NCBI GenBank assembly: GCA_964342815.1
Contig: CAYFHS010000014.1
Location: 56,232-111,255, forward strand
Source of the DNA: an uncultured archaeon
Lineage (GTDB): Archaea; Thermoplasmatota; Penumbrarchaeia; JASLWR01
Length of the DNA stretch: 55,024 nt
Reading direction: 5' to 3'
Position numbers and translations under genes: made by a program. Positions 42,699 to 55,024 of the stretch are shown in pieces. The notes under the pieces were generated by a model. The model ran no database searches, was not told the origin of the DNA, and worked only from the letters and a program-made list of their open reading frames with translations. Every line of letters starts with the position of its first letter. The first letter of the stretch is position 1.

Positions 42699-44156
42699 TT
42701 ATCTAGTTACAGTATTGATCAGCCCCAGTATTCCACCAATAAAAAGGATTATACCTATGATTATACCTACAATCGCCATCTGTCTTCCTTTATATTGAAG
42801 AGGTTCCTTATCGATCTTACGCATGGAAATAGCGTTAAAGTACATCCCTGCTATACCAAATAAGATACCAAAAATCACAATTCCCACAATACTGACAGGA
42901 CGAGGAATGAGTCTGGAGACCACGAAAATAGAAACTGCAATTACGCCTACGATAGACAAAATAAAAGTGATAAGTGCCAAACTATAGATTTTTTGTTGAT
43001 GATCTGGAGATGATGATGGAGATGACGATGAAACAGCAGCGGGCTCATCAACTCTAATAGTTTTCTCAGTCGGGTTTGATAAATGATCCTGTGAAATCGG
43101 TGAAACAGCCGTGGTCTTTTCTGCACTTATGGTTTTCTTCTGCAGAGTCGATATATCAATGGAATCCTGTACGAGGCTCTGAGTAATTTCAGGATATTCT
43201 GCAATAGTTTTTGGACCCGAATCGGGCTGCAGATCCGGAAAACGGATTATTTTCTTTTCACTTATCTCCTTTAACTTGTACAACATTACATCTGTACCCC
43301 AACGATCTTCTTTTCGTTTTTTTAGCGCTCCCATGATCACTTCGTCCAGTTCCTCGGGTACTTCGGGATTTAGTGCACTTGGTTGTTCGGGTTGATCCAT
43401 AAGGACTTTCCCCATACAATCGGCAATGTCCTCCCCTTTAAAAGGATTTTTTCCGGTAACCATCTTGTAAAACATCACACCTATCTGGAAGATATCCGTC
43501 TGCCAATCTACATTACCATACTCTCGTTTATTGAATTGTTCCGGTGCACTGTGGGAAAGTGTTCCTTTAAAATCCCTGGATCCCGTTACAGATTCAGAGG
43601 CCATGAATTTTCCAATACCCCAATCGGTGATTTTCGCCACTCCTCGAGATGTGAAAAGAATGTTCTCCGACTTGATATCCCTGTGAACGGAAGCCATTTT
43701 ATGTGCATATGAAAGACCCTCCAGAACCTGTACCATTATTTGGACAGACTCCCCGACCGTCAGATCATGCTTTTTCATTAACTGTTTAAGACTGCCTCCC
43801 TCCATTAATTCCATAGCCATGTGCGGTACTGGTTCAGTTTTTATACTAAAGAGTTTAACAATATTACGATTTTTTAATCTCATCCAGAGTTCACCCTCAG
43901 ATTTGAAACGGCCGATTACCTTTTCATCCATACTGATCAGGTTACCATCCGTTTTTGGGATCTTCAACGCAAGCTCCTTCCCATGCTCATCAATACCCAT
44001 ATATACATCCGCAAAGCCACCTGAACCAAGAAGATGATAGATTTGATATCCTGGTAGAAGGTCCCGTATGTTATCAGGTGCAGGTTTAGGTGGAGGGGGT
44101 GGAAGGAAGTCTCGGAACGAATCAGATTGTGCAATGGGTGAATTCATGTATTTCAT
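42699..44156 (-). CDS. Hanks-type Ser/Thr protein kinase with C-terminal membrane (DUF4190-like) domain
   Basis: LGSGGFADVY, ALKIP, HRDIKSEN, DWG, APEQ, DIFQIG; C-terminal TMs with KGRQMAIVGIIIG. Confidence 0.9.
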   Translation of the reverse strand: MKYMNSPIAQSDSFRDFLPPPPPKPAPDNIRDLLPGYQIYHLLGSGGFADVYMGIDEHGKELALKIPKTDGNLISMDEKVIGRFKSEGELWMRLKNRNIVKLFSIKTEPVPHMAMELMEGGSLKQLMKKHDLTVGESVQIMVQVLEGLSYAHKMASVHRDIKSENILFTSRGVAKITDWGIGKFMASESVTGSRDFKGTLSHSAPEQFNKREYGNVDWQTDIFQIGVMFYKMVTGKNPFKGEDIADCMGKVLMDQPEQPSALNPEVPEELDEVIMGALKKRKEDRWGTDVMLYKLKEISEKKIIRFPDLQPDSGPKTIAEYPEITQSLVQDSIDISTLQKKTISAEKTTAVSPISQDHLSNPTEKTIRVDEPAAVSSSSPSSSPDHQQKIYSLALITFILSIVGVIAVSIFVVSRLIPRPVSIVGIVIFGILFGIAGMYFNAISMRKIDKEPLQYKGRQMAIVGIIIGIILFIGGILGLINTVTR

Positions 44157-44257
44157 CGTCGGAATTATTCTGTGGATATAAAAACATTATTGAATGAAAG
44201 CTTCTGAAAGGATTTCGCAATTTCCATTCTCCATTTGTTTTGGTTTCTATCCAAAAT

Positions 44258-44356
44258 GTATAACGACCTGCGGGTATACGAAGTTCCGACCAAAGGGAGG
44301 TTATTTGGGCATAGCACGAAGAATATCGTGCGGCGCCGAGAACTCGTTAGTTAGGC
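44258..44356. repeat. attC-like site A (terminal, most degenerate)
   Basis: GTATAAC...GTTAGGC, 99 bp, internal GCACGA-AGAATA-TCGTGC hairpin. Confidence 0.75.
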
Positions 44357-44574
44357 GAGGGTGAAGTCCTCCCACAAGCGCAGAGTGGGGTACGTGGGTG
44401 TTGAATTTCCAATATCCTCTCTTTTTTTTCAGATTTTTTATCTGTCATCCGCTTCTATATCTTCCACTCGACTATGAAACATTCGAAGTTGGACAAAGGT
44501 TAATAATATCCCCTCCAATCAATTAATTAACTTGGCCATTCGTGGTATAATAATATACGTTCCAGAATCAGTCT

Positions 44575-45024
44575 TTAGTTTCGATCAACACTGGATAAAA
44601 TCTCCAGATCGGCCTCGTCCTGTTTCCGCGTTGATGCCTGTTTATTTTTAACCAATTCCCGTATCCCAATAAAATAAACCTTCTCGTTTCCATAAATTCC
44701 GAGCTTTTTACCATTCCATACCTCTTTAAACATGCAACCATCAATTGAAGTAAGAATGTCCACTCTTACCGGTTCATATCCCAGCTGAACAATTTTACCA
44801 ATTTGGCTAAAATCCTCCTCCGATAGATTCAAGCATTCAAATCCAAATTCGTTGAGGGCTTCCACAATACCCTTTCCGTTTTCAATACTTGGTTCTACGA
44901 AGATGGTCATATCTTTTGTATATCGGGGGATGGCATGAAAGGCAACTGCATAGGCACCAATAATACAGTATTTTACATCATATTTATTGAATAACCTTAA
45001 CAACTCTTCGAAGTCCTTTTCCAC
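44575..45024 (-). CDS. nucleotidyltransferase-fold protein (cassette 1)
   Basis: IIGAYAVAFHAIPRYTKD, VDILTSIDG, NKQASTRKQDEADLE. Confidence 0.8.
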   Translation of the reverse strand: MEKDFEELLRLFNKYDVKYCIIGAYAVAFHAIPRYTKDMTIFVEPSIENGKGIVEALNEFGFECLNLSEEDFSQIGKIVQLGYEPVRVDILTSIDGCMFKEVWNGKKLGIYGNEKVYFIGIRELVKNKQASTRKQDEADLEILSSVDRN

Positions 45025-45181
45025 TCTCGCTTTTATCCCCCTTTTTCATTTTATCATATGATTCTCTTAAAAACTGAAACGTATCTAATCTCATTGTCTT
45101 ACCCATAAATAAATAATAATCCTGATCAAATCTTTTAGCGGCTTCAAATGTGTCTGTCTTATGTATCCAAATTTTTGCCAT
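44984..45181 (-). CDS. small partner protein upstream of the nucleotidyltransferase (TA-like pair)
   Basis: 65 aa overlapping the NT start; FE.A...D..YY....RL....FLR...LRRV.KV pattern typical of such partner genes. Confidence 0.65.
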   Translation of the reverse strand: MAKIWIHKTDTFEAAKRFDQDYYLFMGKTMRLDTFQFLRESYDKMKKGDKSESGKGLRRVVKVIQ

Positions 45182-45624
45182 TTTGCTTGAAACCCCCGCT
45201 TTATTTCTATAAACTCTTTTTCAATCGGAAGCGATTTTTCTATCACTACGGCATTTCTGAAAGTCACACAATGCCCCAATCACCTCTAAATCAAAATCTA
45301 CTAATCTCCTCACTTATCACCTGTTGGATTTATCTTCTGTTTTTGCATATTTGTGTTGCATTCCTTCATTGAAGTACGCAGATAAATATTTTTTCTGTGA
45401 TTGTACAAAAATAATCTTCCACATTTCGCAATCATAGGAAAATTATTCACCAAGCGAGCATCAATACTCGTCTTTTCAAGTAACATGTTTGCATGATGAG
45501 TTTCATAGTCGATTAAATTGAACACACTATTCATTCCTAAGAAGCAGATACAGCTTTACATTCCCATTATAGGATATGGGAAATTCAACTTTGGTGGGAC
45601 GGTGTGGGGCGAGTGCCACATTTC

Positions 45625-45747
45625 GCCTAACGTCTTGCCAATTTCCGAACTTCCGATGGGGGGAACAACACCTATGAGATCGCCATTGGTGGGGTGGGAA
45701 GTTGCAGCGGAGCCGACAAGCGAGAGCCTGAAACTCGTTAGTTATAC
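45625..45747. repeat. attC-like site B
   Basis: GCCTAAC...GTTATAC, 123 bp, GAACTTCC/GGAAGTT inner stem. Confidence 0.85.
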
Positions 45748-46328
45748 GAGCCCGCTAGGGCCAAGAATTTGCGGGTGGTTTCGGGGGTTATTTAAGGGAA
45801 AATTCGCAGTTATCGGAGTCGACCGAAAACGCCTTTAGTGCATAGTTTTTTCCGTTTTGAATAAACGGAGAAGATTTCACATATCGACCGTTATGTGAAA
45901 CCCCATGTTTCATCGTTCCTTCCTCTCCTTGTTGGTCCGATATACGAAACACCAAATGGCGAATTTTTCGGTCTTGCCCTACGGTAGTAAAAAATCCCCT
46001 GTGAGCGTATTTTTCTACATGAAGAAAGGAATGAGGAAAATTCGATTAACGTGATCTCATCGTGTTATACTGCCTCGTTACAAGGCGAGGCATGGATTTA
46101 TAAAACGAAGTGGAAGAAATCCGCAATGTTTAAATGAACTTTTTGTATTTTGGGGGAAGTATAGGGACTTATTTATACTTCTTTGATTCTCAAAACTTGA
46201 CTGACTTTTCCTTGATTGAAATCCTTATCTTCCCATAATGGTTTGCTCATTGGCTACAACTCTGGCTCATTATCTTATCCATCAAGCATAATTTGTATTC
46301 CAAACGCAATTATAATAGGAAGAGTTAT

Positions 46329-46357
46329 TTACTACTTAGTAAATTACTACACAGTAA
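46329..46357 (+). promoter_or_regulatory. tandem palindromic operator TTACT-N4-AGTAA x2
   Basis: TTACTACTTAGTAA 46329-46342 and TTACTACACAGTAA 46344-46357 directly before ATG 46360. Confidence 0.6.
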
Positions 46358-46359
46358 AT

Positions 46360-47730
46360 ATGTTTTCAGACAGAAAAGTTGAGCTAAAAGCACTCAAGGA
46401 CTATTACAAGATGGCTTCCAAAAGAAGTCAATTACTGGTGATTTACGGCAGGCGGCGCGTGGGTAAGACTACACTTGTAAAGGAGTTTTTAAAGGAGGTC
46501 AAAGGAGTTTACATTTTCATTGAGCCAAAGAGCGAAGAACTAATCTTGAAGGATTGTGAGGATGTATTTGGGAAAATAATAGGACGCACCCCTCGTTTAG
46601 ATTCCTGGGAAACACTATTTAATGTGGCCCTATCTGAAAAACTGACGCTCGTACTTGACGAGTTTCAGAACCTGGGTGTGGTAAATCCTCACCTTTTCTC
46701 AAAAATCCAAAAGATATGGGATGAGATTGGGTCTGAACCAGGTTTGCTTTTTATCACAATCGGATCTTATGTAGGTATGATAAAGAAAATATTCAGGGAT
46801 GGAAAACAACCGCTTTTTGGTAGGGCATCAGGAATGATGAGGTTAGACCCATTTGATATTTTCGCCACAACCGAATTCCTAATGAGCGAAGGAATGAGTT
46901 TTGAACAATGTTTAAGGGGATATGCTATAGTCGGTGGCGTACCCCGATATTTAGTTGAACTTGGGCTTAAAGGCGACAATATCGAGAGACTTTTTTTTGA
47001 TTCGACATCACCATTGAGGGAAGAGGGTATTAATATTCTCGCTTTAGAATTCGGTTCACGACACAAGGGATATTTTTCAGTACTTGAAAGTGTGAGTAAA
47101 GGTAAGTCCACTCCAAAAGAGATTGCCGATTATGCCGGAATGAAAATTGCAACAGTATCAAAATATCTTGGAGAACTCTCAGATGAATATGAGATGGTAA
47201 TGGCCGAACGTCCCGTGACCACAACAAAGAAACGATTCGTTAGATATCGTATTAAGGACAATTTCTTCGATTTCTGGTTTAGGTACGTGTACTCAAAAGC
47301 CTCCTTAATTGAAATCGATCCAGAGGGGGTATTAGTTGATACACTGAAACAATTACCTCAGTACATCTCTATAAAGATGGAATATGTAATAAAAAATATT
47401 ATCATTAAGAAGAAGCCAATCTTTCCGCCAACAGCTATAGGCCGATGGTGGGACCGGAAAGGAGAGGAAATTGATGTTGTTGCAATCGATGAGAAGAGCT
47501 CTAGAATACTATTCGTTGAGATAAAATGGCGAAAAAAATCGGTAGGCTGGAATCTTGTCGAAGAACTGAAACGTAAATCACAACTGGTCCAGTGGAGAAG
47601 ATACAATAGGAAAGAAACACTATTATTCGTATCGAAACAAGGTTTCACAAAAAGTTGTCTTAAAAGAATGGATTCCGAAGGAATACTTCACTGGGATCTT
47701 AAGGATGTGGAAAAGCTAATACTGAGTTAG
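46360..47730 (+). CDS. archaeal-type AAA ATPase + wHTH + DUF234/PD-(D/E)XK nuclease domain (cassette 2, inverted)
   Basis: F.DR..EL, YGRRRVGKT, LDEFQNL, GGVPRYL, DNFFDFWFRY, EIDVV..ILFVEIKW. Confidence 0.9.
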   Translation: MFSDRKVELKALKDYYKMASKRSQLLVIYGRRRVGKTTLVKEFLKEVKGVYIFIEPKSEELILKDCEDVFGKIIGRTPRLDSWETLFNVALSEKLTLVLDEFQNLGVVNPHLFSKIQKIWDEIGSEPGLLFITIGSYVGMIKKIFRDGKQPLFGRASGMMRLDPFDIFATTEFLMSEGMSFEQCLRGYAIVGGVPRYLVELGLKGDNIERLFFDSTSPLREEGINILALEFGSRHKGYFSVLESVSKGKSTPKEIADYAGMKIATVSKYLGELSDEYEMVMAERPVTTTKKRFVRYRIKDNFFDFWFRYVYSKASLIEIDPEGVLVDTLKQLPQYISIKMEYVIKNIIIKKKPIFPPTAIGRWWDRKGEEIDVVAIDEKSSRILFVEIKWRKKSVGWNLVEELKRKSQLVQWRRYNRKETLLFVSKQGFTKSCLKRMDSEGILHWDLKDVEKLILS

Positions 47731-47873
47731 AACTTCAAGTTAATCAGTGTTATGTGTTGTTTTTCTTTATGCTCTACGGGGTGGGGTTGAAGAAAAAAAG
47801 TTCATTTTATTTACACGTTAATCGAAGTTCACAGGGGATTTTGCGTTAAACTGTAGGGCGATTCCGATATTTC

Positions 47874-47974
47874 GTATAACGACTGGCAGGTTCACGAAGT
47901 TTTCGACCGAAGGGAGAGAATTTGGGCGGAGCACGAAGGAATATCGTGTGTAGCCTTGAACCTGTTAGTTATAC
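47874..47974. repeat. attC-like site C
   Basis: GTATAAC-GAC-TGGCAGGTTCA...TGAACCTGTTA-GTTATAC, 101 bp. Confidence 0.88.
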
Positions 47975-48400
47975 GTGTCCGAAAGGACCGAGCACCGCAG
48001 ACCCGGAGGGTCGAGGAGCGCAGAGTATCAGAATCGTTCGGGATTCAGTTCTGACCGTCTTTTTTCCAGCTGGCGATGTCAACGGAAAAAGTTTGGCTTC
48101 TGCCGTGAACAGAGGGTTATGCGAGGTTATGGAAACGCAGATTTCCGTAATTTCTACTCTTTCCCTTTTTTTTTCCTATTCACGAAATGTCAGCACGTTA
48201 AGAATCCCGAATGGAAATGTTGTGGATTGAGGAAAATGGTGTATGGTGGAGGCCCGAAGAACCGGAGCCCATGCCGACTGGAGAGAGGCAGCATATTTTG
48301 ATAATTTCACCTCAATCCGACATTTCCACATGGAGAGTTTTTTCATCGACAAGAGGGGCGTCAGTCCCTTCTTGGACATATAGTAATAATGTTGATCGCC

Positions 48401-48658
48401 CTAAAGTTCTTTTTCATAGATATTCTTCCGATGCCCTATTGCCACTATCCAAAGTTGCTCTCTTTCTCTTCTCCAATCAATTATTGCCCTATAATCACCA
48501 ATACGCAGACTGAAATAGATAGAGCCTTTTAGGGGTTTTAAAAAGTGATCGGGCCACTCCTTCATTGTTTTCATTTTGGCGACAATCCGTTTTCGGATTT
48601 CTTTATCCAAATTTGAGAATTGGCCCAAAGCCGGATCTGTGAAGAGTACCTCAGTCAT
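48401..48658 (-). CDS. RelE/ParE-family toxin (cassette 3)
   Basis: LDKEIRKRI..K, LKG..YFSLRIGDYRAI, AIGHRKNIY; start overlaps the antitoxin stop (ATGACTGA). Confidence 0.9.
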   Translation of the reverse strand: MTEVLFTDPALGQFSNLDKEIRKRIVAKMKTMKEWPDHFLKPLKGSIYFSLRIGDYRAIIDWRREREQLWIVAIGHRKNIYEKEL

Positions 48659-48890
48659 AGAGGTCCTTCTCCACTTCTTCCAACGTTTTTCCTTTTCCAC
48701 TTTTTACCTGCTGTTTTCCAGCTTCTATCACTTTCAATGTTTCCTTGGACAATCGACTTTCATCTTCGATAAGATGTCGGATTGCATCGCGTACCATCTC
48801 ACTTTTGTTCATGTAGTAAGGGTGTATATCAAGGAAATCGTTGATTTTGGTTTCCATCCCTTCAGATATCTTGACATTGATCGAAGTCAT
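48651..48890 (-). CDS. ribbon-helix-helix antitoxin (cassette 3)
   Basis: TSINVKIS, YMNKSEMVRDAIRHL RHH motif; upstream of and overlapping the toxin. Confidence 0.88.
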   Translation of the reverse strand: MTSINVKISEGMETKINDFLDIHPYYMNKSEMVRDAIRHLIEDESRLSKETLKVIEAGKQQVKSGKGKTLEEVEKDLYD

Positions 48891-48899
48891 TTTATCACC

Positions 48900-48932
48900 A
48901 TGGTAATACTATGGTAAAACACAATATATAAG
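48900..48932 (-). promoter_or_regulatory. TATA box and operator of the RelBE-like cassette
   Basis: Minus-strand CTTATATA at 48925-48932; ATGGTAA repeated 11 bp apart (48900, 48911); GGTGA SD. Confidence 0.6.
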
Positions 48933-49108
48933 TGCATCGGTAAAAATCTCACTTTTAAGGCACTCTTATTCATTATTTCCCATAAGACCGCTTTAATGAT
49001 AATAATCTTCGAAATGGAAGGGAGTGATTGATCCTCAACAATCAATCGTAACGAGCTTGATGTTGATAAACTCCTATTATAAAACTCTCCGGGCGATTAT
49101 GGTATTAC

Positions 49109-49228
49109 GTATAACGTCTTGCCAATTTCCGAACTTCCGATGGGGGGAACCGGTCAATGATTACAGCATTGGCGGGGTAGGAGTTGGGCGGAGGCGTCAG
49201 CCGAGAGCCGTGAACTTGTTAGTTATGC
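49109..49228. repeat. attC-like site D
   Basis: GTATAAC...GTTATGC, 120 bp; left arm nearly identical to site B. Confidence 0.85.
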
Positions 49229-49498
49229 GAGCCCGCTAGGGCCAAGGAGGACCGAAGGTCCGACGCAGTTTTTCGTCACCGACGAAAAATCGTTTTGGGG
49301 CGGAATTTTCCAACATCCACTTGGAAAAGTTATTAAATCCCATAGGTTATACGAAGATTTGAGTTCGTATCTCTTCTCTCTTGGTCGGATTTAAGAAGTC
49401 CCAAAACGGTAATTTTTCTGTCTTTACCTATTGTAGTAAGAACCTATTCAGTTGCTCATATTATTGTACCAGAACCCAAACCATAAAATGAAACTTCT

Positions 49499-49885
49499 TT
49501 AATCACCTAAATAAATAACATTTTCTAGACCCTTGAAATGGGAATCTCCGGTTACCACTATTCCACCATATTTCTTTTGAAATGCGATAATTAACGAATC
49601 GATCATTCCAAAATGTTTACGAGTTTTTCTCATATCATGCCTAATCTTAGCAGCATCCACCCAATCTTCGATATGAATGGAGTGTATTTCGGAATTAGCT
49701 CGAACAATAGTATATGACTCTTCGAAATCGGATCCCTGCCGCAAGCAATACCCTTTTAATTCTGCGATATTACATTCAAGTGTTATTATCGTATCATCTT
49801 GTTCTTCGACGATCCTATTAACGATCTCACCTTTATCAGAGCCAATGAAGTACTCAATCCAGGCATATGTATCAAAAATGAACAT
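49499..49885 (-). CDS. PIN-domain toxin, VapC-like (cassette 4)
   Basis: FIFDTYAWIEY, AEL, GMIDSLIIA, VTGDSHF; GGTGA SD before ATG 49885. Confidence 0.92.
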   Translation of the reverse strand: MFIFDTYAWIEYFIGSDKGEIVNRIVEEQDDTIITLECNIAELKGYCLRQGSDFEESYTIVRANSEIHSIHIEDWVDAAKIRHDMRKTRKHFGMIDSLIIAFQKKYGGIVVTGDSHFKGLENVIYLGD

Positions 49886-49889
49886 AAAT

Positions 49890-50099
49890 TCACCACAAGT
49901 TTTCGTGCTCATCATCATCTTCTCGAATAAAAGCTGGTTTTCCCTTGAATATACCAAAACCACTGATATGTTCCTTCTTTTTGATATCGATATCTAATTT
50001 ATCATGCTCCGTTATACCCATATCTAGAGCACTCTGTCTAGGGAGGATAATTCCTAGTGAATTCCCCCACTTCTTTACCTCTACAGTTATATGTGTCAT
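49890..50099 (-). CDS. AbrB/MazE-family antitoxin, VapB-like (cassette 4)
   Basis: VEVKKWGNSLGIILP motif; upstream TTTAAATA and GGTGA. Confidence 0.9.
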   Translation of the reverse strand: MTHITVEVKKWGNSLGIILPRQSALDMGITEHDKLDIDIKKKEHISGFGIFKGKPAFIREDDDEHENLW

Positions 50100-50275
50100 C
50101 ACTTTCACCTATTATGTATATGTACTTCTTAATATTTAAAAGTTATACTCATACGTCTAACTTTTCGGCATGAATGATTCGTTTCTTAAAGGGTTCTGGT
50201 ACATATCTTTTCACAGATTTCTTGACTTTCTGCATTAGGGTTTTTACGTAAAACAATAGGCGGTGACGAAATTTC

Positions 50276-50374
50276 GCATAACGTGTAGCAGGTTCCCGAA
50301 GTTCCCCTGAGTATAACGAAGGGGAATTTGGGCGGAGGCCGATAGGCCGAGAGCCGGGAACCTGCTAGTTATAC
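50276..50374. repeat. attC-like site E
   Basis: GCATAAC-GTG-TAGCAGGTTCCCG...CGGGAACCTGCTA-GTTATAC (perfect 13-bp stem), 99 bp. Confidence 0.9.
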
Positions 50375-50705
50375 GAGCCCGTTAGGGCCAAGGATTTTAC
50401 GGAATAGAATGGAGTAAAATCTGCCGTTTATCAGAATCGTCCGTAGGGATGAAAATTTATTGTGATTGTGCTTTCGCACATGAAACACTTCCCCCGGAAA
50501 TTTCAATTTACGTCTTAGCGCGCTAGCTAGACAAGCGCAATCTTAAGAGCAAAGTCACATTTCTTTACGCAGAAGGGCAGATTGATATTTCTCTACAGCC
50601 TCAATTTATACTTTCGATATATATTATCCATAGTAATGCTACCGACTCATATATATTGTTCCCGCACCGAGTGAAAACACTGTCGGAGTATAATGATGCC
50701 GGACC

Positions 50706-51860
50706 TCACTTTGAACTTTCGACCTTTCTTTTAAGTAGGAGGGATATCCCAACTGCTCCGATAAATAATATCAACTGGAACCCTGGGGTCTTACTTGTCT
50801 CCTCACTGAAATAGATTCTCTCAATATCGCTTGATCCTTGGTTTCCTACCGCTTGTATTAGAATACTTTCTACTTGTATCGTCGTGTTGGTATCCGATTT
50901 CGGGGCATAAATGGTAATATAGAATTTAACAGTTCCACCTTTCTCAATATGCCTAATTCGGGGTGTTATATTAATCTCCAGGTTCGAATCTTCAAGGATT
51001 ACGATATGAACGTTAGTTACGGACACATATTGACATGTTACCTCGATCGGGATTGTCCTACTCTCTCCCGGTTTTATTGCTCCCACATTTTCTACTTCGG
51101 GGGATATTACCAGAATATGAGCATTTTTTCCCTCTCCTTTTTGCCATCGATCAGGATCATAAGGATAATAATCATCCTCATTTGGAACCCCATCTCCATC
51201 TATATCCGGGTCAGTTAAATCAGGAATTCCGTCTTTATCACGGTCAGTGGTCGGAAAGGAGGTCCTATCAAGAGGGTCTGTGGATTCTATATATTCATCC
51301 AAATTTGTATAACCATCTCCATCACTATCAGCTTTTGCGTCACTTGAATCCTCTGGATCTAGACCATACTTGAGTTCCCAATCATCAGGCATACCATCCC
51401 CATCGGAATCCATGTCAATATTTGATTTTATTGATCCCATCGGTGCAAAAACAGTTAAATGTGATAAATTTCCCCATACATAGTTCTTTTGAATGTCCAC
51501 CCCCGTGTTTGTTAATTCACTCCATTTCGAGCCAGCCCAATAAAATAATCTCATACTGGATTCATCCATCCCGCTAGGAATATCACTATCGGAGTAAGGT
51601 ATCTGGATATAAATCCATTTGAAACCATCTGCTATGATTTCAACAAATATGCCAATATTTCTCATGTCTGCTGGATCATCACCTGGACTCGGACATTCAT
51701 TAATACTAACATTACTAGGTTCCAAGGTGCACACTTTAACAGAAATTCCAGTATCAGGATCCGTAAATGTTTCGATAGTATTTTCTCCAATAACATCTGT
51801 AGATGGAAAAATAAATGTCAGTAACGTTATCAAAATTATCGTACATGTCTTCCAATTCAT
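50706..51860 (-). CDS. secreted Ca-binding (DxDGDG/TSP3-like) surface protein with PGF-CTERM-like sorting signal (cassette 5)
   Basis: Signal peptide; DSDGDGMPDDWELKYGLDP repeats; C-terminus TPGF + TM + KRK. Confidence 0.82.
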   Translation of the reverse strand: MNWKTCTIILITLLTFIFPSTDVIGENTIETFTDPDTGISVKVCTLEPSNVSINECPSPGDDPADMRNIGIFVEIIADGFKWIYIQIPYSDSDIPSGMDESSMRLFYWAGSKWSELTNTGVDIQKNYVWGNLSHLTVFAPMGSIKSNIDMDSDGDGMPDDWELKYGLDPEDSSDAKADSDGDGYTNLDEYIESTDPLDRTSFPTTDRDKDGIPDLTDPDIDGDGVPNEDDYYPYDPDRWQKGEGKNAHILVISPEVENVGAIKPGESRTIPIEVTCQYVSVTNVHIVILEDSNLEINITPRIRHIEKGGTVKFYITIYAPKSDTNTTIQVESILIQAVGNQGSSDIERIYFSEETSKTPGFQLILFIGAVGISLLLKRKVESSK

Positions 51861-52200
51861 ATTATCACCCCGAGAGATGGCATTCCAGTATATAATAGAA
51901 TTTTGGTACAACTATACAAATGTAGATTTCCCGTTGAAACATGGTCTTACTCGTAACGGTTTCTTCATGGAAAGCAGTCTCCCCAGGAGACCTAAATAGT
52001 AATATTCAAAATAATCAAGGTTTTAGAGAGTATTTTGATTTTGATAACTGCCCTCCTGCGTACCTCTTCATATACCAAGCCTTTTAGCGTATAACCCCAG
52101 AATCTAGTGACTTTGCTCTAATCTCACCCAAATTCTTCGTTAATTGAGGGGAAGATACTCCAAATTTTCAACATTCCCCTACGGGCGATTTTGATATTTC

Positions 52201-52322
52201 GTATAACGACTGGCGGGTTCACGAACTCCGTCGGGGGGAACCTTCCAATGATTTCAGGGTTGGTGGGGTAGGAGTTGCAGTGGAGGCCGACAGGCCGAGA
52301 ACCGTGAACCCGTTAGTTAGGC
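52201..52322. repeat. attC-like site F
   Basis: GTATAAC-GAC-TGGCGGGTTCACG...CGTGAACCCGTTA-GTTAGGC, 122 bp. Confidence 0.9.
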
Positions 52323-52850
52323 GAGTCCGCTAGGACCGAGGAGCACCGCAGGTGCGACGAAGGGCTGCGGACTCGTCCAGAATTTAGTTTACCTGCCCGT
52401 AGTTTCCCTGATGGCGAAGTCATGGGGAAATTTGCGAAACTGATGTGCAGTTTCCGTGAATCGTTAGGTTATGCGAAGTGAAGAATAATCCGCTAATTAT
52501 TCGTAACTTTATCTTCTTTTTCTCCCTTTCCGATTCACGAAGGGCTAAACGTATAAATTCTGGATGATAATGCTGTTTCGGGATGAAAGGCACATTGAAC
52601 TTCAGATCACAATGATGCCGTCAAAAATGGCCGTTGGTTGGTTCAATCGCCCGAAGGGTGATTTACGAGGCATGAAGTGCCGAAGTCAGCAGGCACGAAG
52701 TAACTGCTATCCCAACCCCTGCCATTGATTCATCCGATACTGCATTGTCACCTGAAGGAGATTGTTGAATATTCCGCCGTAAACATGTGGTCAAATCATT
52801 GGATTGACCATTATACTGATTTCCAGGAGGCTTATTTTTCATTTATGAAT

Positions 52851-53204
52851 CTACCTTTTCTTGTACCCAAATTTTTTATTGTAATCTTTGTGATCAATTA
52901 TATCCAATACAAAGGCGATTATTTCAATAACGGTTTCCCCATCAGTTAATGTATACAACATTCTCCAGTAATTCGATAAACTCACTCGAAATAGATTCGT
53001 TACCCCATATTTCTCCATATATTCTTGAGGAATTAGCTTTTTTGAAAGAGGGTCACCATAATGAGGATTTGCCTTTATCAATTCTACTTTCTTGTTTATC
53101 GAATTCAATATTGATTTCTCAATTTTAGATTCTGATGAGTGCTTATTTAGGTATTTGTAGACCTCCTCAGCGTCTTCAGATAATATTACCCGCACCATTT
53201 TCAT
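52851..53204 (-). CDS. RelE-like toxin (cassette 6)
   Basis: VRVILSEDA, L..NPHYG, LFRVSLSNYWRMLYT, DHKDYNKKFGY; overlaps the upstream gene stop. Confidence 0.72.
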   Translation of the reverse strand: MKMVRVILSEDAEEVYKYLNKHSSESKIEKSILNSINKKVELIKANPHYGDPLSKKLIPQEYMEKYGVTNLFRVSLSNYWRMLYTLTDGETVIEIIAFVLDIIDHKDYNKKFGYKKR

Positions 53205-53491
53205 AGTTCAAGCCCCATTGCAATTGCTTTTCTAATGTTTGGATTTGAATTAAATATCCAAGTAATACCATCTACTGTTACCACTATTTTATTACTCTGT
53301 TCAAGATATCGCAATATTGTTTTCAATTTATTATGATTTACCTTTTTAGGAAGGCGCCTTTTCAATTCTGCAATTGTGATCACACTCTCCTCAATATTTC
53401 TAAGGACATCTTCTACCATTATCACTGTGTTCAATGTTGGAGAATGCTCAAGTCTATGTTCATATACATTATTCGCCATTATTGCTTCCAT
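53201..53491 (-). CDS. winged-helix putative antitoxin (cassette 6)
   Basis: SPTLNTVIMVE, ELKRRLPKKVNHNKLKTILRYLEQSNKI; GGTGA SD; 4-bp overlap with the toxin. Confidence 0.72.
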   Translation of the reverse strand: MEAIMANNVYEHRLEHSPTLNTVIMVEDVLRNIEESVITIAELKRRLPKKVNHNKLKTILRYLEQSNKIVVTVDGITWIFNSNPNIRKAIAMGLEL

Positions 53492-53850
53492 CTTATCACC
53501 ATCTGATACAGAATAGTATCAATAATGTACACATCAGTATTAATACATTTCTATTGAATTGTCATTAGATTAAGTATTAGCCCTCCTGGAAATCTTCTAC
53601 AATTACTGTTCGTATCCAAAACCTTGTACTCTCCTGTTTTCGGTGAATGTAGCGTTTAACGGGTACGTTAGACGACATAGGCAATCCAATGATTTAGGAA
53701 AATTATATGTGCAAATAGTTCCACTATTAGGAAGTTGGGCAGGCGGGGATGGGGAATTGGAGGAAGCCCAACGAACAATGCACATGGTGGGGCGGTTTTA
53801 CGGCATAAAAGGAATATTTCGACAATCTTCAAAGGCGAGTACGCAATTTC

Positions 53851-53975
53851 GCATAACGTCTCGCCGGTTTCCGAACTTCCGACGGGGGGATCAACACCTT
53901 TAACATCTCCATTGGTGGGTAAGGAAGTTGCAGCGGAGGCCGACAGGCCGAGAGCCTGAAACCGGCCAGTTATAC
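53851..53975. repeat. attC-like site G
   Basis: GCATAAC-GTCTC-GCCGGTTTC...GAAACCGGC-CA-GTTATAC, 125 bp. Confidence 0.9.
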
Positions 53976-54285
53976 GAGGGCGCTAGCCCCGAGTACCGAA
54001 GGAGGCGAAGTCTCCGAGGAACGCAAGTTTATCAGAATCGCCGAAAAATGCTTTTGGGACGTAGCTTTCCGTTGGCGAATGCAGCAGGAAAATTTCGGAA
54101 ACCGTGCTTTATGCGGAACGAAGTTTCACCCCCTCCTTTTTCATCTTGGTCCGGTTTCCGAAGTACCGAAGGGGTAATTTTTCGGTCTTGCCCTATGGTA
54201 GCCGAAAGTTACTTTATGAACCACAAAGTACAAAGAGACCAGAAGATGAATATCCATACCGATGTATGGAATTCCCAAATACCAA

Positions 54286-54966
54286 TTACTTCTTTGGCGG
54301 AAAAAGAGCATTTTTTATCTTGGCCTTGCCCTCCTCGTAATGAAATCTTTTTTCTATTAACCAATCATTATTTCTCTCAATTGAAATGTTATCATATTCT
54401 TTCTTTTTTTCTAAAATATAATTATTGATTTTTTCCAATTCGTCTTTTGATCCTAATGCCGCTTCATCAATGGTTATATCTTCATCGTTTGCCATGACGG
54501 TTAAAGAGTAAGTATAACCCATTCGCGTATGTCCCGATGAGACAATTTCCTTAACATAGGCCGCATGTGAGATTTCAGACCAAAGCGCATCAAACTTCTT
54601 TTTCTTTCCAACCCAATACTGAAATCTTGTGTTATCTAACATTACCTTTCGGATTCTCAGTGTGAAAGGCATGAGAATTGCTCCTATAATAAAAAGAGCG
54701 ATCCCAATTAAAATCCACCATAATTGATAACCCAACCGCCCTTCTATTCCGACAAACAATGCCATAAGTCCAAAAAGGCATAGAGAGGACGCCCCAACTA
54801 CATATGCCCATGGTCTTTTAGATATGATAAGTGGTTTGGATACAATGCAAATTCCTCCTAACTTTTTACTGAATATTGCCATATTAATTATGGATTTTAT
54901 CTCTAACCTATAACATTTATTAAAATCTTCTGGCCTCGCTTTCATACAATCTCTTCGTTTATTCAA
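54286..54966 (-). CDS. 2-TM membrane protein with C-terminal PH-like soluble region (cassette 7)
   Basis: Two hydrophobic helices then a beta-rich segment; fills the cassette; start uncertain. Confidence 0.65.
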   Translation of the reverse strand: MNKRRDCMKARPEDFNKCYRLEIKSIINMAIFSKKLGGICIVSKPLIISKRPWAYVVGASSLCLFGLMALFVGIEGRLGYQLWWILIGIALFIIGAILMPFTLRIRKVMLDNTRFQYWVGKKKKFDALWSEISHAAYVKEIVSSGHTRMGYTYSLTVMANDEDITIDEAALGSKDELEKINNYILEKKKEYDNISIERNNDWLIEKRFHYEEGKAKIKNALFPPKK

Positions 54967-54999
54967 ATGAATAAATATAACTTTCGGCGTTAACCATTG

Positions 55000-55024
55000 G
55001 GCGATTCTGATATTTCGTATAACG
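55000..55024. repeat. left end of attC-like site H (truncated by the window edge)
   Basis: GGCGATTCTGATATTTC-GTATAAC-G, same leader as sites C and F. Confidence 0.85.

Follow-up and report, generated by a model that had tools for sequence, protein, structure and literature searches.

The window analyzed here is a 55,024-nt stretch at the end of contig C14 (CAYFHS010000014.1, positions 56,232 to 111,255) in the genome assembly GCA_964342815.1 of an uncultured archaeon. Its last 10.8 kb contain seven complete repeated sites of 103-129 nt each and the first bases of an eighth; each site begins with a 9-mer that closes in TAAC (left box) and finishes with a 9-mer that opens with GTTA (right box). 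We conclude, at a probability of about 0.85, that this stretch is the integrase-distal half of an integron-type cassette array in the chromosome of a marine Thermoplasmatota-like archaeon. Several features by which such arrays are recognized were found, namely, an adjoining tyrosine recombinase, an attI box, attC-type palindromes, a boundary footprint, and mobile cassettes. The footprint, in which site ends pair across each cassette and not within each site, is the classical integron cassette-boundary rule and belongs to textbook biology, and this kind of element has been published for Archaea; the unusual part is the integrase, which is devoid of the domain specific to integron integrases (IntI) and carries an extra N-terminal domain.

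Organization of the array

Contig C14 stops where the window stops, and its final 55 nt overlap the start of contig C69 (4.2 kb), which carries four further sites in the same orientation as in the window. The best tyrosine recombinase gene of the genome (391 aa, PF00589 at 145 bits) lies near the end of contig C7, where a lone GTTATGCGT box lies ~105 nt past its stop codon; between this box and the contig end there are a 464-aa gene, a full site, and a toxin-antitoxin pair, in that order. Looking up the identical recombinase protein led to a 182,938-nt ENA contig on which the recombinase and the attI box are followed by the cassettes in the order C7, C69, C14, and which also carries the Pus10 gene of the window. 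The whole array comprises 12 sites and cassettes plus a terminal half site. It is limited by a Ser/Thr kinase gene on the window left and by the attI-like site (a constant part, then G|TTATGCGT) ~105 nt past the recombinase stop codon. Most cassette genes run in the direction of the recombinase gene (window minus strand), and this integrase-sense strand carries the genes of six of the seven window cassettes.

The named relatives of the window Pus10 are from Thermoplasmata/Thermoplasmatota (45-48% identity), and pieces of the array were found in seawater and marine metagenomes from 10 studies. A search of the whole window against Rfam at gathering thresholds returned tRNA only. A 485-aa gene at 42699-44156 was first taken for the integrase and was rejected as such: by family match it is the Ser/Thr kinase, located outside the array.

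Pairing of site ends across cassettes

In six of the seven cases in the window, the right 9-mer of a site and the left 9-mer of the site that follows are exact reverse complements, and no right 9-mer is exactly complementary to the left 9-mer of its own site (0/7). Counted against the reverse complement, the mismatches between a right box and the next left box are 0, 0, 0, 0, 0, 1, and 0, compared with 4, 2, 1, 2, 1, 2, and 1 for the own left box. The counts of six and none out of seven, already reported in the initial annotation, were reproduced, with all the 9-mers quoted there found in place, including the three rare variants that pair across cassettes (right box of S1 with left box of S2, S3 with S4, and S4 with S5). 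An exact permutation of the seven downstream left boxes gave six perfect pairs in 24 of 5,040 orders (P = 0.0048), six being the ceiling attainable with the box set of the window. The full array of 12 sites and a terminal box, on which the pairing could have broken down, showed perfect cross pairs in 11 cases of 12 and own pairs in 2 of 12 (permutation P ~ 2e-5).

The sites all lie on the minus strand, with the left box beginning at the first position of each. S1 (44256..44358, 103 nt; left box ATGTATAAC, right box GTTAGGCGA from 44350) is the last, integrase-distal attC-like site, ~100 nt upstream of the Ser/Thr kinase gene. It is followed by S2 (45623..45749, 127 nt; TCGCCTAAC, and GTTATACGA from 45741), S3 (47872..47976, 105 nt; TCGTATAAC, and GTTATACGT from 47968), S4 (49107..49230, 124 nt; ACGTATAAC, and GTTATGCGA from 49222), S5 (50274..50376, 103 nt; TCGCATAAC, and GTTATACGA from 50368), S6 (52199..52324, 126 nt; TCGTATAAC, and GTTAGGCGA from 52316), and S7 (53849..53977, 129 nt; TCGCATAAC, and GTTATACGA from 53969). 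The contig end cuts S8 after its left box (TCGTATAAC, 55015..55024), and the remainder of this site is on C69, as bridged by the 55-nt overlap.

The cross pairing spans exactly 9 bp and no further. A second inverted repeat is located further out: when the 18 nt left of each left box were compared with the stretch 32-80 nt after the right box, the mean match was 11.8/18 across cassettes and 9.6/18 within sites (permutation P ~ 1e-5). This repeat comes in cassette-specific variants, such as TTTCGTCACCG, TTACAAACTG, TCATGAAGTGC, and TATCAGAATCGCC, and would lengthen the stem of the site in the circular form. Related sites in two related genomes (G001 and G003) are scattered on short contigs, so that one further cross pair could be scored; in this independent case, from another genus of the same family (G003:C193), the exact 9-mer partner of the right box is found 752 nt downstream.

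The exchange point and cassette mobility

The 9-mer pairing is symmetric, that is, exchange at G|TT in the right box and at AA|C in the left box fit it equally well, so natural variation at attI was needed to tell which box is cut. Five assemblies from other marine samples contain an identical recombinase and an identical downstream constant sequence ending in ..GGCAATAGGGGA (..GGGGA). This constant part of attI is followed by three different first cassettes, which start with GTTATGCGT (464-aa gene), GTTATGCGA (a 106/96-aa gene pair), and GTTATACGA (an unrelated cassette). The 106/96-aa cassette occurs on 20 contigs. Its end in window orientation, ..TCGCATAAC, borders on the attI constant sequence in one context and on a site body in nine, and the two versions part at the base immediately after AAC. 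Read along the integrase strand, the attI and internal junctions are identical from the G of GTTATGCGA onward. Because the attI junctions diverge right after AAC, the exchange point is confined to the five bases G-T-T-A-T of the integrase-sense strand, the canonical G|TT included, and the box that is cut is the left box (..TAA|C on the window plus strand). In window coordinates, the site to the left of a cassette belongs to it: the cassette takes in the body of this site with its right box, then a trailer and the genes, and stops at ..TAA of the next left box.

This polarity is supported by a published archaeal attC (Hadarchaeota), the top strand of which ends in ..CAGTC GTTATAC and corresponds to the window minus strand of the sites. 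An alternative interpretation of a 3-nt bulge as extrahelical bases, with the window plus strand as the top strand and the cut in the right box, was dropped because both the attI junctions and the published archaeal attC polarity contradict it.

One assembly (L010) lacks the four integrase-proximal cassettes of another (L011) together with exactly four site bodies, with no tandem empty sites left. This joint loss fits cassette-wise, site-specific gain and loss, and not tandem duplication or transposons between pre-existing sites. The contigs are unlikely to be assembly chimeras given that the junction repeats (9-14 nt) are far shorter than the assembler k (55-127). Thus, two further proposals of the initial annotation stand. 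The crossover, placed there at or next to the GTT/AAC triplet, maps inside this core and not outside it, and the building of the array by site-specific cassette insertion, as opposed to tandem duplication, is borne out by the permutation tests and the matched absence of cassettes and sites. Its inference of an insertion footprint holds as well, with the refinement that pairing alone does not reveal the cut box and that the principle is the established definition of an integron cassette, not a new one.

Folding of the sites and a possible mechanism

A single site folds with a 9-bp stem at its end; after 3 unpaired nucleotides, a second stem of 9-13 bp leads into a branched inner part. The 15 sites of the genome align to one consensus fold, with compensatory double changes in 10 of 26 pairs; the most frequently broken position falls in the terminal stem, which fits the hybrid nature of array sites. 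The comparison of circular cassettes with linear sites in silico, as suggested in the initial annotation, came out in favor of the circle: in the sites rebuilt as in a circular cassette, the 9-bp end stem was fully paired in 10 of 12, with a mean gain of ~2.9 kcal/mol. The 3-nt unpaired stretch, on the R'-L' side, separates the cut AAC from the L stem; in published archaeal attCs, too, the spacer is longer on that side (PMC9668308).

Each cassette comprises its genes, a conserved noncoding trailer, and one attC-type imperfect palindrome of 103-129 nt, and cassettes very likely enter and leave by recombinase-mediated exchange inside the conserved GTT/AAC core. With exchange inside the core, the box bases beyond the exchange point belong to the neighboring cassette, and the two end 9-mers of one cassette are the halves of the terminal stem of its site in the circular form; this explains why the ends pair across cassettes and not within the sites of the array. 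The integrase-sense (window minus) strand is then the "top" strand, and the window plus strand is expected to fold and recombine, by analogy with integrons probably with a cut between A and C of AAC and resolution by replication. The substrate is presumably the folded single strand, as in integrons, and cassettes presumably exist as free circles. The 9-bp stem and the second repeat may be under selection since they would form in the excised circle.

The recombinase and alternative interpretations

The recombinase is only partially covered by the NCBIfam model of integron integrases (TIGR02249): model positions 5-168 and 234-314 are matched and 169-233 skipped, for a score of 203.5 against a cutoff of 265, which no gene in the genome passes. 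In an alignment with IntI1, the recombinase and five archaeal and bacterial relatives are missing 31-aa and 10-aa segments of IntI1, and in a comparison with VchIntIA (2a3v), 29 residues stand opposite 70. The archaeal XerA model (NF040815, XerA_Arch) is passed, narrowly, at 222.4 bits against a cutoff of 220, and the protein aligns end to end with Pyrococcus XerA, but is extended by an N-terminal domain of ~90 aa that the solved XerA does not have. The short XerA-like genes typical of other relatives are just 35%-40% identical to the recombinase. Other members of the class encode a short XerA-like protein, whereas in this genome and its relatives G001-G003, the N-extended recombinase is the sole Xer-like gene found at E <= 1e-30. 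We infer, with good support, that this neighboring recombinase performs the exchange.

The N-terminal domain (L005 5636-5920, the first ~95 codons) contains W37, W44, P47, and F60, which are invariant in the archaeal and bacterial relatives. Its structural model is confident for residues 1-73 (pLDDT about 89), with a predicted beta-beta-alpha repeat fold. Among its best structural neighbors are the N-terminal domain of UvsW (Z-score = 7.3, rmsd 5.8 over 71 residues) and the damage-recognition domain (DRD) of XPB (Z-score = 6.0, rmsd 2.4 over 55; Foldseek probability 0.9), with VIA-align Z-scores of 6-7.3 that fall in a range rated as common by the tool itself; the HARP domain of SMARCAL1 scored lower (Z-score = 4.2, rmsd 1.9 over 48). 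A Foldseek search of the domain against the PDB produced no match at E <= 0.001, and Pfam HARP matched one relative weakly (E = 0.056). The HARP, XPB, and UvsW domains reportedly make up a known set of one structure-specific DNA-binding fold, as Mason et al. are said to have described in 2014. The predicted likeness of the N-terminal domain to UvsW-N, XPB-DRD, and HARP is a lead, not a finding.

The affinity to XerA raises the alternative that the same layout is served by classical double-strand Xer-type recombination between short duplex core sites, as in the pdif modules of Acinetobacter plasmids or in dif-exploiting elements. We consider this unlikely, even though the enzyme scores as XerA-like, aligns end to end with the Pyrococcus protein, is free of the IntI insertion, and has no rival in its own genome, which is 89% complete and in which no other protein comes near the XerA cutoff (next best, 97.6 bits). 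In duplex DNA, the two boxes of a site are ~100 nt apart and come together only when a hairpin or cruciform forms; compensatory changes maintain the stems between them, and all sites have a single orientation, as opposed to the alternating pdif sites. An attI half site combined with palindromic cassette sites is the asymmetry of integrons, and the extra N-terminal domain has no counterpart in XerA.

Far less probable is the possibility that the cassettes are small transposable elements, each flanked by 9-bp terminal inverted repeats, that landed in an array of tandem palindromes already in place. The unit ends do have the form of inverted repeats (9 bp plus the second repeat of 11-15 nt), but the four cassettes missing between L010 and L011 are gone together with exactly four site bodies instead of leaving tandem empty sites, the integrase-proximal half site is joined to the array in the canonical attI manner, and family matches of the neighboring genes revealed no transposase within or beside the array. 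Chance, or tandem duplication followed by drift among few box variants, is refuted as the source of the cross pairing: only five to six variants exist, mostly GTTATACGA or GTTATGCGA, which makes some matches cheap, but the composition-preserving permutations of the window and the full array reject it, every rare variant pairs correctly, and the cargo genes are unrelated.

Four observations weigh against the integron-type interpretation itself. First, one cassette of the 12 has an end-box mismatch: the right box of S6 (GTTAGGCGA) differs by one base from perfect pairing with the left box of S7 (TCGCATAAC), the sole imperfect cross pair. Second, the additional IntI-specific domain (the I2 helix region near patch III) is absent from the recombinase, which is not a bona fide IntI; passages of PMC7790495 treat this domain as the innovation enabling single-strand attC recombination. 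Third, no bulged bases on the L'' arm, the position at which canonical attC sites have them, are evident in the consensus fold or the L stem; the unpaired 3 nt are on the R'-L' side instead. Fourth, no excised circles were seen in four marine runs, which were searched as Logan contigs, not raw reads. Three joints in the marine runs (45736>49218, 47941>45732, and 55019>45628) speak neither for nor against circles, being explained by paralogous sites outside the window, namely, the first site of C69 and the C7 site, which align to their look-alikes in the window. In run X7, a loose end at 47864 hints at a third cassette order.

Cassettes, trailers, and solitary sites

Cassette boundaries were inferred from the attI junction mapping and cargo from the list of open reading frames (ORFs) and Pfam; all cassettes are given on the minus strand. 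Cassette 1 (44264..45630), made up of the C of AAC, the S1 body, the right box, the trailer, the genes, and ..TAA of the next left box, contains two ORFs, 44575-45024(-) and 45310-45534(-), without a family match. Cassette 2 (45631..47879) encodes a DUF234/ATPase_2 protein (ORF 46216-47730, TTG start) on the plus strand, the only gene inverted relative to the array. In cassette 3 (47880..49114), a ParE-like toxin gene (48401-48700(-)) overlaps an upstream ORF without a family match (48651-48890(-)), which, judged by its position, is likely the antitoxin. Cassette 4 (49115..50281) encodes a PIN-domain toxin (49499-49963(-)) and, in 49890-50108(-), a protein with a weak MazE/AbrB-like match below the cutoff that is likely the antitoxin partner. 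Cassette 5 (50282..52206) encodes a 401-aa protein (50706-51911(-)) with TSP3-repeat matches only, weak and below the cutoff. Cassette 6 (52207..53856) contains a weak ParE-like match, just below the cutoff, in 52851-53204(-), next to a 96-aa partner ORF (53201-53491(-)), and cassette 7 (53857..55022) encodes a 226-aa protein (54286-54966(-)) without a family match.

Directly after the right box, each cassette has a trailer, a conserved noncoding module of ~250 nt; in the window, such modules were delineated at 45750-46000, 47977-48230, 49231-49440, 52325-52560, and 53978-54210. The trailer starts with two to three small hairpins, in which pairing is kept by compensatory changes (GCCC..GGGC, GTCC..GGAC, GGGC..GCCC). 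Behind these lie another GTTATGCGA-like box, a CT-rich run, and a block similar to the left arm of a site.

At the end of contig C7 (L005 9930-10000), an odd junction reads ..GCATTTAAC GGCTA GTTATACGA, that is, a right box with just 5 nt of site body, at a place where the ENA contig shows a full site; an assembly end effect or a secondary-site event is possible. Solitary sites are found elsewhere in the genome, at C2:81981-82106(-), C18:27597-27722(+), C42:18965-19083(-), and C65:~2020-2110. The ends of each of these are mismatched with one another; one site is truncated, and the others are full. The left box of the C18 site has its exact partner in a lone GTTATGCGA box 1,225 nt upstream.

Homologues in other genomes

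Full-length homologues of the recombinase occur within the genus, family, and class of the archaeon, where most are located at contig ends, and in Latescibacteria, Spirochaetota, Gemmatimonadota, Firmicutes, Bacteroidota, and Undinarchaeales. At the homologue loci inspected, an attI-like "(R)GGA|GTTA" box follows the stop codon, 60-140 nt past it within the genus, family, and class, and this box, together with canonical-looking attC cassettes, is also present in one Latescibacteria and one Spirochaetota genome. A crude attC finder gave mixed results at the loci of distant homologues, with clear arrays only in Latescibacteria, Spirochaetota, and Cytophagales.

In the Latescibacteria metagenome-assembled genome GCA_012103555.1 (L018 9152-13000), the homologue is 42% identical and is followed by a near-identical attI, TTCGGCAATAAGGAA|GTTATACGA. 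The attC-like cassettes there contain CPT, amidohydrolase, methyltransferase, and acetyltransferase genes and show cross pairing of up to 10 of 11 bases, compared with 8 for own pairing. In a related species with a 76% identical integrase (L015 11285-21167), the conserved attI box is followed by RadC and then by a block of >9 kb with genes for a ResIII helicase, an N6/N4 methyltransferase, and a UvrD/Cas4-like nuclease; no further box was found within 10 kb after attI.

Comparison with known systems

By definition, an integron cassette starts at the first T of R' and extends to the G of the next R', and the site it owns is the one seen in the circular form (ACID paper, PMC2674596); a passage in PMC5027507 traces this rule to Hall, Brookes and Stokes 1991. 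The array follows the same scheme: crossover lies in the GTT/AAC core, box bases past the crossover are those of the next cassette and complementary to its inverse core site, a true site is formed in the circular cassette alone, and attI is a half site beside the integrase. It differs from integron cassettes in that the complementarity covers 9 bp instead of 7 and is accompanied by the second, cassette-specific inverted repeat, and in that the boxes are mostly GYATAAC/GTTATRC, one position away from the RYYYAAC consensus in most copies.

The Vibrio superintegron, with its homogeneous VCR sites, and the "reverse" integrons of Spirochaetes are long chromosomal arrays with near-uniform long sites per genome and many toxin-antitoxin cassettes. 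The array shares with these sedentary chromosomal integrons its length, its near-uniform long sites, and its toxin-antitoxin cassettes, and the integrase is co-directional as in the Treponema type of "reverse" integrons, the intI orientation of which is noted in PMC9668308. Unlike them, it combines an integrase without the IntI insertion but with the ~90-aa N-terminal domain, sites with a branched inner part and no evident L'' bulges, and the ~250-nt conserved trailer.

The catalytic and core-binding domains of the recombinase are Xer-like, 2 bits over the XerA_Arch cutoff, which relates the system to XerA/dif, pdif modules, and IMEX elements. The pdif modules have compact 28-bp XerC/XerD sites in alternating orientation. 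The sites of the array have neither property: in place of a compact 28-bp duplex site, there are palindromes of 103-129 nt in a single orientation, and the enzyme bears its extra N-terminal domain. The asymmetry between half site and full site likewise sets the array apart from Xer modules and is typical of integrons.

Archaeal integrons were reported in 2022 by Ghaly et al. (Sci Adv; PMC9668308), with attI immediately downstream of intI. Like those, the array described here is chromosomal, has attI right after a co-directional integrase gene, and is rich in toxin-antitoxin cargo; its sites resemble the Hadarchaeota attC in the R boxes and in the ..AGTC GTTATAC end. The archaeal IntIs of that study are said to carry the IntI-specific domain, in contrast to the enzyme here. 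The same study lists Thermoplasmatota genomes with attC clusters in which an integrase went undetected (PMC9668308), whereas in the present case one contig links an integrase and attI to an array of 12 cassettes, and the cassettes vary naturally between assemblies.

Implications

The footprint shows that this repeat array works, or worked until recently, as a cassette platform in an archaeon. Taken together with public assemblies, it narrows the crossover to five bases and assigns each site to its genes, without an experiment. It is possible, though less likely than not, that the array represents a widespread, largely unrecognized integron-like class spanning Archaea and Bacteria, in which the integrase never had or has lost I2, the HARP/XPB-DRD/UvsW-N-like N-terminal domain may read the folded site, and the stem may be extended past the R boxes by the second cassette-specific repeat; standard finders would file such arrays as integrase-less attC clusters.

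The enzyme beside attI is without the very domain by which the field and standard software define integron integrases. If this recombinase runs the array, then either folded attC sites are handled without the IntI domain or a Xer-like enzyme makes integron-like arrays in another way. It would, in that case, also account for many archaeal and bacterial attC clusters that seemingly lack an integrase.

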